A stretch of DNA of 64,000 bases from Escherichia coli (lineage in GTDB: Bacteria > Pseudomonadota > Gammaproteobacteria > Enterobacterales > Enterobacteriaceae), in the NCBI RefSeq assembly GCF_046105845.1, contig NZ_CP151004.1. One strand, given 5' to 3'. Made by a program: the position numbers. Positions 3,001 to 6,000 of the stretch are shown one piece after another; within the stretch, counting starts at the first letter, position 1; each line of letters opens with the position of its first letter.

Positions 3001-6000
3001 GTCATCGGTAACCCTGCCGGAACTTGCGGACCGCGGCTGTTTTCACGCATAAAACGTTTCACAATACGGTCTTCCAGCGAGTGGAAGCTGATGATCGAAA
3101 GCCGCCCACCCGGGGCCAGCACGTTGAGCGAGCTTTTTAGCGCCTGCTCTATCTCCTCCAGTTCACTGTTTACCCAAATGCGCACCGCCTGGAAGGTACG
3201 GGTCGCGGGATGTTTAAACTTATCTTTCACCGGCGTTGCGGCAGCCACGACTTCCGCCAGTTCTTTGGTGCGGGTCATCGGCTGTTCGCGGTTACGCTCG
3301 ACAATGGCGCGGGCAATGCGTTTAGCAAAACGCTCTTCACCGTAGGTTTTCAATACCCAGGCGATATCGGCTTCTTCTGCGGTTTGTAGCCATTCAGCGG
3401 CTGACTGCCCACGGGTTGGGTCCATACGCATGTCCAGCGGACCATCGCGCATAAAGGAAAAGCCGCGTTCAGCATCATCAAGTTGCGGTGAAGAGACGCC
3501 AAGATCGAGGAGAATGCCGTCGATCTTGCCGATAAGATCGCGCTCGGCAACGTATTCGCCCAGCGCGGAGAAAGGTCCGTGGATGATGGAGAAGCGCGGA
3601 TCATCAATAGTCTTCGCAACGGCGATAGCCTGCGGGTCGCGATCGATCGCCAGCAAACGCCCCTCTTCGCCAAGCTGCGAGAGGATCAGACGTGAGTGAC
3701 CACCGCGACCAAAAGTCCCATCAATGTAGATGCCATCAGGACGGATATTGAGGCCATTAACGGCTTCATCCAGCAGCACCGTAGTATGTTTATAGTTTTC
3801 CATCATTTTATAGAGACAAGTCCTGCAGTCGCTCTGATAAGTCTCCAGTAGCCAACTGCTCTGCGTCGATATCTTCCTTGACCTGTTGATGCCAGGTTGT
3901 TTCATCCCACAGCTCAAACTTGTTGAACTGTCCAACCAGCATCACTTCTTTTGTCAGCCCGGCATGTTGCCGCAGTACTGGCGCGATTAACAATCGACCT
4001 GCGCCATCCATCTGACATTCGCTGGCATGACCTAACAGTAGGCGCTGCACACGGCGCTCAACCGGGTTCATGCTCGACAGACGCGATAATTTTTGCTCGA
4101 TAATTTCCCATTCAGGCAGGGGGTAAAGCAGCAGGCACGGGTGATGAATGTCAATGGTGCAAACCATTTGACCGGCAGCGTTCTCAAGCAGCTGTTCCCG
4201 ATAACGGGTAGGCACTGATAAGCGCCCTTTGCTGTCGAGATTGACTAACGTTGCTCCCCGGAACATGCCAGCCTCACCCCTTATTCCCACTTTGCCCCAC
4301 AATTTCCCACTGAAAGGAGTTTACGGAGCGGAGGAAAAGCTTGTCAAGCCAGTCACAAGGCATACCGAGGTAAAAAACCCGATGTTTACGGCTAATATCA
4401 GCGTTGTTTATTTTACGTCCAACGTGCGAAGCAAATTAACGTTATGAATAGCTGTAAGAAAAAATCCCTCATCGTCATCACCGTTTTAAAATGACTCACT
4501 ATTTTCCACAGCAAATATAAAGTGTCAGTTTGCGACGCGAGCGGCATTTTAGGACATATCTTCCTCGGTTAACAGTCCCTGTTGCGTCTGTGTGGCGCTT
4601 GATGCCAGCGGGTTTGCGCAAAAGCAAAGAAAAGTGTTTGTTAAATCGGCAATTCATCTCTGCATGTAACAAAATAATGCAAAAACGCGCTATCGATATC
4701 ACTTAATTATTGTGAATTTCAGCTGGTGAGGTAATTAACGGGCAGGTTTAAAAGCATTTATCAATAATAGCCAGGAATAGTCTTATTTACTTTAAGGATA
4801 TTGATATCCATTCCCGTACTCAACGCGCCAGAGAGAAATTCACCTGGCGCGTATTTTTGTTCGCGGCTTAGCTACGGCTGAGCACGCCGCGGCGATAGAG
4901 ATTACGTTTAATGCGCGTTAAACCAGGTTTTGGCTTACGCGGTTCGTCCAGGCTTGCCAGGACAATCTCCAGCACACGCTCTGCGACATCGCGGTGACGT
5001 TGAGCCACTGCCAGCACCGGGCACTGTAAGAAGTCGAGCAGTTCGTTATCGCCAAAGGTGGCAATTGCCAGGTCAGAAGGCAGTTTGCCGTCACGACGTA
5101 GCGTGACATCCATCACCCCTTGCAACAACGCAAACGACGTTGTGAACAGTGCCTGCGGCATCGAATGCGTTTCCAGCCATTTTTCGAATAACTGGGCAGC
5201 CGCCTCCCGCTCATAGCTGTTGGCATAAAGGAAATGCACTTCGCGCGGATCATCTTTCCAGGCAGTACGGAAACCTTGTTCACGCAGGAAGCTGACAGAA
5301 AGCTCCGGCAGCGCGCCAAGATAAAGTACCGTCTCGGCGGGAAACTTACGTAACTCTTCCGCCAGCATTTCGGCATCATCCTGATCGGCACCAACCACGC
5401 TGGTGAAGTGTTCACGATCGAGGGCGCGGTCCAGCGCGACAATCGGGAACGGGTCGTTAGCCCAGCGTTGATAAAAAGGATGCTCAGGTGGCAACGACGT
5501 CGAAACAATAATGGCATCGACCTGACGCTGTAAAAGGTGCTCAATGCAGCGCATTTCGTTGTCGGGCTGATCTTCCGAGCAGGCAATCAGCAGTTGATAA
5601 CCCCTTTGCCGCGCCTGGCGTTCAAGATAGTTAGCGATGCGGGTATAGCTGGTGTTCTCCAGATCGGGGATCACAAGACCAATAGAACGTGTGCGTCCAG
5701 CACGAAGCCCAGCTGCCACGGCGTTCGGGTGGTAATTGTGCTCACGCACCACAGCCATGACTTTTTCAACGGTTTTGTCGCTCACACGGTATTGCTTCGC
5801 TTTGCCGTTAATAACATAGCTTGCAGTGGTCCGCGACACTCCCGCCAGCCGAGCGATTTCATCCAGTTTCACAATTGCCCCTTGCGTAAAATGTAAAAAC
5901 CATAGCCATTGTACTGGTATGGGTTAAATTCATTAACATCTAAGCGCAGAAAATTAACTGCGGCAACTGCTTTTATTCCAGGTTCCCACTGATTTCGCAA

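Follow-up and report, generated by a model that had tools for sequence, protein, structure and literature searches.

The MraZ protein of Escherichia coli K-12 binds a repeated sequence upstream of mraZ and represses the promoter Pmra (Eraso 2014, J Bacteriol 196:2053), as related in two later papers that also place the repeats downstream of the -10 element (PMC7761207, PMC8475190). The MraZ operator has been defined as three boxes, GTG(G/T), set apart by 6-nt spacers, and in the structure from Mycoplasma genitalium the beta-sheet "cradle" of each MraZ subunit enters one major groove, where Lys13, Arg15, and Arg86 contact TG(T/G); the closed MraZ ring opens, letting adjacent subunits reach successive boxes, and mutating the boxes leads to a stepwise loss of binding and repression (PMC12957436). 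Removal of the boxes likewise abolishes MraZ repression in Bacillus subtilis (bioRxiv 2022.02.09.479790). The M. gallisepticum protein has been reported as an activator (PMC12957436), so the presence of the site does not by itself imply repression. The Pmra site is the control point at which a conserved repressor governs the leading genes of the division and cell-wall cluster (mraZ, rsmH, ftsL, ftsI, the mur genes, and others farther on), and MraZ control there ties cell-envelope synthesis to division; the homologous operator has been explained structurally by cryo-EM since 2026.

Here we consider three GTGG boxes that precede mraZ in a 64,000-nt stretch of an E. coli genome (contig NZ_CP151004.1; hereafter the window). 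From sequence comparison we take them to be the MraZ operator of the E. coli dcw (mra) promoter Pmra, identical in sequence to the K-12 site, and put the probability of this reading at about 0.96. The element is already known, having been a characterised MraZ operator in E. coli since 2014. To this the present analysis adds that GTGG is the conserved unit of the boxes in Enterobacteriaceae, that the boxes are tied to the -10 element and not to the start codon, and that the published transcription start fits the promoter geometry poorly.

Repeats, promoter, and gene context

The first-pass annotation had described a triple GTGGG repeat at 10-bp spacing in front of mraZ, within 4281-4312 and about 45 bp from the start of the gene, and this description holds. 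The dcw genes are oriented right to left in the window, so the repeats are read on the minus strand (the plus strand shows them as (T/C)CCCAC), and the period from box 1 to box 2 to box 3 is exactly 10 bp. All three boxes (4285-4310) fall inside the annotated interval. Counting from the A of the mraZ ATG (4266), the first G of box 1 (4310) is 44 nt upstream, and box 3 ends with 18 nt left before that ATG. Minus-strand order up to the mraZ start is ...TTGACAAGCTTTTCCTCCGCTCCGTAAACTCCTTTCA GTGGGAAATT GTGGGGCAAA GTGGGAATAA GGGGTGAGGCTGGC ATG. The pattern GTGGG-N5-GTGGG-N5-GTGGG occurs once in the 64 kb, with both strands searched and one mismatch tolerated, and the relaxed pattern of three GTGG-N6 units also occurs once; each was found in none of 100 shuffles (dinucleotide-preserving for the strict pattern). 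Two-box matches in the window amount to two overlapping pairs, both inside the MraZ box site. Reading of the sequence upstream of box 1 revealed no further in-phase GTGG-like boxes in the promoter spacer (positions 4320, 4330, and 4340). Coordinates of the individual features are collected in table 1, in which the 81 aligned sequences are the window and its counterparts from 80 other species of Enterobacteriaceae, with MraZ proteins 88-96% identical.

Table 1. Features of the mraZ promoter region, numbered by position in the window
Feature	Position	Strand	Basis and remarks
Pmra -35, TTGACA	4342..4347	-	Promoter scan; invariant in 81/81 aligned sequences
Pmra -10, TAAACT	4318..4323	-	Promoter scan; invariant in the 81-sequence alignment
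MraZ box 1, GTGGGA	4305..4310	-	Read from sequence; conserved core GTGG 4310-4307
Published Pmra +1 (38-nt leader)	A4304	-	Arithmetic from the literature value, mapped via K-12 coordinates
MraZ box 2, GTGGGG	4295..4300	-	Core GTGG 4300-4297; conserved TT(T) precedes
MraZ box 3, GTGGGA	4285..4290	-	Core GTGG 4290-4287; invariant AAA precedes
Probable Shine-Dalgarno, GAGG	4272..4275	-	Sequence and alignment; 5 nt before ATG, within conserved GGGGTGAGG
mraZ CDS, 152 aa	3808..4266	-	TIGR00242 (MraZ equivalog), 225 bits against a cut-off of 98
rsmH (mraW)	2865..3806	-	TIGR00006, 452 bits; annotated rsmH in E. coli genomes

Pmra is a near-consensus sigma-70 promoter (TTGACA-18-TAAACT) with 10 of 12 consensus matches in the promoter scan, and box 1 begins 7 nt past its -10 element. 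The usual distance from a -10 element to the transcription start is 6-7 nt, and normal geometry would predict a start at about A4311, just before box 1. The published start, 38 nt upstream of mraZ in two papers that both cite Hara 1997 (PMC7761207, PMC5089854), falls at A4304, which is unusually far from the -10 element at 13 nt, no other -10 here being credible. In the comparison with the Pmra start that the first-pass annotation had proposed, the published +1 adjoins box 1 and fits the -10 geometry poorly. Relative to +1, box 1 occupies -6 to -2 with the published start or +2 to +6 with a start near 4311, its exact placement being uncertain, and a literature search on the mraZ promoter added nothing on where transcription starts in E. 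coli. Between the -35 and -10 elements, the 18-nt spacer (4324-4341) is almost invariant in the 80 species, more so than sigma-70 promoters normally require, and may be read by another factor. The GAGG ahead of the start codon is probably the mraZ ribosome-binding site.

The next gene downstream from mraZ is rsmH, the first to come under Pmra/MraZ control after mraZ, and the upstream neighbor encodes Cra. Around the site, about 1.1 kb matches 5,423 of 5,426 complete E. coli genomes at 95-99.8% identity, with the genes annotated cra, mraZ, and rsmH. Three of 5,424 matches to this chromosomal locus sit on records labeled as plasmids, probably mislabeled or misassembled replicons. The encoded MraZ carries two DXXXR motifs, D11-K13-R15 (DSKGR) and D87-R91 (DGAGR), and aligns across both of them to the M. 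genitalium MraZ chains of the cryo-EM entries 9qlr and 9qlg. Residues D11, K13, G14, R15, D87, and R91 are invariant in MraZ homologues down to 36% identity.

Several other elements of the region were noted. A perfect 8-bp inverted repeat with a 12-nt loop (CGCGCCAG...CTGGCGCG) lies at 4824-4851 on the minus strand, 17 nt past the cra stop codon, and is probably the cra terminator hairpin; it was missed by the terminator scan because it has no T-run, and K-12 differs from the window at one base of its loop. Some 20-40 nt upstream of the Pmra -35 element is the moderately conserved GCCGTAAACATCGGGTTTTTTAC (4366-4388, minus strand), which resembles a terminator tail and has a stem of only 3 bp. 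An Rfam scan of 3700-5000 at E<=1 returned a single match, to osmY-RNA inside the mraZ coding region (19.9 bits, below the gathering score of 46.9), which we treat as chance.

Conservation of the boxes and their anchoring to the promoter

The -35 and -10 elements, the three boxes, and the leader are base for base those of K-12 MG1655 (89553-89633, with the mraZ ATG at 89634), apart from one position: window 4330, in the -35/-10 spacer, is C here and A in K-12. This C/A difference is the only common E. coli polymorphism in the Pmra spacer. The 84-bp promoter and operator stretch is at least 99% identical in 3,520 of 5,423 E. coli genomes, and the sampled variants alter the promoter spacer or the base preceding box 1 and leave the boxes intact, with the one exception of strain WS3294A. 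There (NZ_CP035819.1, L004, near 3576820) a 5-bp deletion of CAGTG, equivalent to window 4308-4312, takes out the GTG of box 1 and brings the remaining boxes nearer to the -10 element, with boxes 2 and 3 intact; either the operator is naturally mutated in this strain or the assembly is in error.

Three GTGG-N6 units at 10-bp phase are present in all 80 other species of Enterobacteriaceae. The -35 and -10 hexamers and the GTGG of each box are invariant across these species and form, with the almost invariant spacer, a conserved block, whereas DNA upstream of the -35 element drops to about 40-60% column identity in the same alignment. GTGGG is found at box 1 in 78 of the 79 species matched by a regular expression (GTGG in 80/80) and in the same proportion, 78 of 79, at box 2, which lies exactly 10 bp from box 1. 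At box 3 the GTGG and the AAA that precedes it are invariant, and the fifth base in the other species is T (53), C (15), or A (11). A fifth-base G (window 4286) occurs only in the E. coli sequence among the 81, with E. albertii, E. whittamii, and all other genera having T, C, or A. Judged by this alignment, the conserved unit in the Enterobacteriaceae is GTGG and not GTGGG, and of the sequences sampled only that of E. coli has the strict triple GTGGG. The repeat unit GTGGG(A/G) given by the first-pass annotation accordingly describes the window itself and does not extend to the family.

The distance from the -10 element to box 1 is 7 nt in 74 of the 81 sequences. That from box 1 to the ATG is bimodal, being 43-45 nt in 61 sequences and 52-54 nt in 20. 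This combination of a fixed distance on the promoter side with a variable one between box 3 and the ATG indicates that the promoter, and not the start codon or ribosome-binding site, fixes the position of the boxes, as would be expected of an operator.

The 20 sequences with the longer leader (Buttiauxella, Cedecea, Siccibacter, Pseudescherichia, and others; loci L057, L059, L060, L063, L066, L067, L069-L074, L076-L078, and L080-L084) have an additional stretch of about 10 bp (one helical turn) after box 3 and before the Shine-Dalgarno sequence, in the region equivalent to window 4267-4284. The inserted unit in Buttiauxella, GGGGAATTTA, is similar to a box-plus-spacer unit. At the in-phase fourth position (4280-4277 in the window) 69 of the 81 sequences have GGGG and none has GTGG, and the leader insertions of about one turn preserve the register of this position. 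The in-phase GGGG might be what is left of a fourth box that has decayed, or else no more than the Shine-Dalgarno region and a duplication.

Further afield, ten distant mraZ loci (36-63% protein identity) were picked from a library search that gave 8,285 representative clusters. GTG-type boxes at 10-bp phase lie upstream of mraZ in all ten, three or four boxes in each, and mostly overlap or directly follow a recognizable -10 element; two of the loci share TTGACA-N17-TAAACT. When the core was held to a strict GTG[GT], chains of at least two boxes within 200 nt were found in eight of the ten (shuffle P <=0.044 each). Of the remaining two, one has four phased boxes under a relaxed core only and the other (L088:345-390) has its boxes about 255 nt before the start codon, as two pairs 21 bp apart, which implies a long leader. 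Locus L094 has boxes at phase positions 0, 10, and 30, with position 20 skipped.

Taken against the features expected of a MraZ operator, the site reads as follows. Direct repeats with a GTG(G/T) core, of which at least three are expected, begin at 4310, 4300, and 4290 on the minus strand as GTGG, and their 10-bp center-to-center distance (4-nt core plus 6-nt spacer) is seen in the window and in 80/80 species. They lie upstream of mraZ at a dcw promoter, past the -10 element and at or over the transcription start (as placed by the literature), and they are followed immediately by the gene for a cognate MraZ that has Lys13 and two DXXXR motifs. At orthologous loci the boxes are kept while the flanks diverge (80/80 species, 10/10 distant loci). 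The proposal that these repeats are the reported MraZ operator repressing the dcw cluster is thus upheld by identity with K-12 and by conservation of the boxes, their phase, and the contact residues, with binding and repression themselves taken from the accounts of the K-12 work in the papers cited above.

Alternative readings of the repeats

The G-runs of the boxes, together with the GGGG before the Shine-Dalgarno sequence, could instead form a functional G-quadruplex (G4) in the non-template strand or the mRNA leader, in place of a GTGG read by protein. Four G-tracts of at least three with loops of 1-7 nt are indeed present at 4308-4277 (GGG-N7-GGGG-N6-GGG-N5-GGGG, fitting the canonical G3+ N1-7 x4), where the G4Hunter maximum is 1.68, and a G4 has been reported downstream of PmraZ in Staphylococcus aureus, in a study that also claims conservation of G4-forming motifs in the mraZ promoters of Gram-positive and Gram-negative bacteria (PMC11796246). 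The G-tract pattern is not kept at orthologous promoters, however: the canonical motif occurs in one of the 81 Enterobacteriaceae sequences, that of the window, against phased GTGG x3 in 81/81, because box 3 is GTGG[T/C/A] in the other species, and what persists, in 79/81, is a weaker two-G-tract pattern. The T that is invariant in each box, the equally invariant AAA ahead of box 3, and the strict 10-bp register are also left without explanation by a G4, and a ViennaRNA fold of the leader with G4 energy terms left a G4 out of the minimum-energy structure, although this is weak evidence. A G-quadruplex as the conserved function of the repeats is very unlikely, and we reject it on the single occurrence of the motif. 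As a separate observation, the box-3 G at 4286 completes the canonical motif (4308-4277) in E. coli and in no other species of the set. That the E. coli-lineage T-to-G change in box 3 and the in-phase GGGG (4280-4277) together complete an operator-overlapping G4, which would compete with MraZ repression or add a layer to it in E. coli, seems to us improbable, as does the related idea that the GGGG is a degenerate fourth MraZ box.

If transcription starts near 4311 all three repeats would be transcribed, and the leader is conserved, so the repeats could act in RNA by forming, in the 5' leader of mraZ, an element that is structured or bound by protein and that controls translation or stability. 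Against such a role, the leader folds with the same energy as its shuffles (z ~0) and leaves the repeats unpaired in the minimum-energy structure, the operator matches no Rfam family at E<=1, the published +1 (4304) leaves box 1 untranscribed, and conservation tracks the distance from the -10 element and not from the start codon. Leader RNA structure is rejected on the z-score, and we hold a role of the repeats in RNA to be extremely improbable. Another DNA-binding protein is conceivable on the strength of PdhR, which was enriched 1.7-fold in ChIP at the mraZ upstream region and shifted it very weakly in gels (PMC3265435). This binding is weak and has no link to the GTGG repeats, and PdhR is rejected as their reader on that account; no PdhR-type palindrome, judged by the PdhR consensus, was found in the repeats. 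A chance pattern is excluded by its absence from 100 shuffles and its conservation in 80/80 species. Moreover, the boxes co-occur with mraZ in distant lineages and agree with the sequence contacted in the cryo-EM complex, so that either a different protein or coincidence has a negligible likelihood as the source of the repeats.

Proposed mode of action and comparison with known operators

On the reading of the repeats as the MraZ operator, three GTGG boxes one helical turn apart would bring three successive major grooves to the same face of the DNA. One MraZ subunit would read each groove with its beta-sheet "cradle", through Lys13, Arg15, and R91 (the arginine of the second DXXXR motif), and neighboring subunits of the opened ring would bind cooperatively. 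That E. coli MraZ engages three subunits in this geometry is suggested by analogy with M. genitalium. The boxes would span from just after the -10 element to about +26 (or from -6 to +20 with the published start), overlapping the footprint of RNA polymerase. Since the transcription start and the beginning of the transcribed region lie under the boxes, MraZ bound there would be expected to block RNA polymerase at Pmra, at some step of initiation. The resulting repression would amount to negative autoregulation of mraZ together with control of the downstream dcw genes.

The closest described system is the Pmra operator of E. coli K-12, with three direct repeats situated between Pmra and mraZ, which is the same element in a shared gene order (cra-mraZ-rsmH-ftsL) and differs by the single C/A spacer polymorphism at 4330 that is common among E. 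coli genomes. The MraZ-binding repeats (MBRs) of the B. subtilis mra promoter are likewise three direct GTGG boxes with a 10-bp period, although they read GTGG[A/T]G with 4-nt spacers where the window has GTGGG[A/G]; they are needed for MraZ repression and are the sole triple repeat in the B. subtilis genome, and in that organism ftsL is the lethal target of MraZ over-repression (bioRxiv 2022.02.09.479790). The four 7-nt repeats of the Burkholderia cenocepacia PmraBc operator have 3-nt spacers and share the 10-bp period and a position past the -10 element that overlaps the transcription start "as in E. coli"; they differ in number from the three boxes here and belong to a promoter with a 100-nt leader (PMC7761207).

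The M. genitalium operator, AAAGTGT-N3 x4 (PMC12957436; PDB 9qlr, 9qlg, 9r4j, 9sx6, 9sz7), has the same 10-bp period, a GTG(G/T) core after A-rich bases like box 3 here (AAAGTGG), and a transcription start inside or beside box 1, as in the window. Its MraZ aligns to that of the window with an E-value of ~1e-11, and the E. coli counterparts of the M. genitalium contact residues (K13, R15, and R86) are K13, R15, and R91. In contrast, M. genitalium has one box more (four against three), Mycoplasma has T as the fourth core base where the window has G, and the M. genitalium protein is an octamer on DNA, in the only DNA-bound structure, whereas E. coli MraZ has been reported as a possible dodecamer. 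Entry of beta-strands into successive major grooves of short direct repeats, with cooperative protein-protein contacts, is also known from MetJ at its met-boxes, Arc, CopG, and the AbrB/SpoVT swapped-hairpin family (PMC12957436), but these are other protein families with other box sequences, and the window site lies outside those operator classes.
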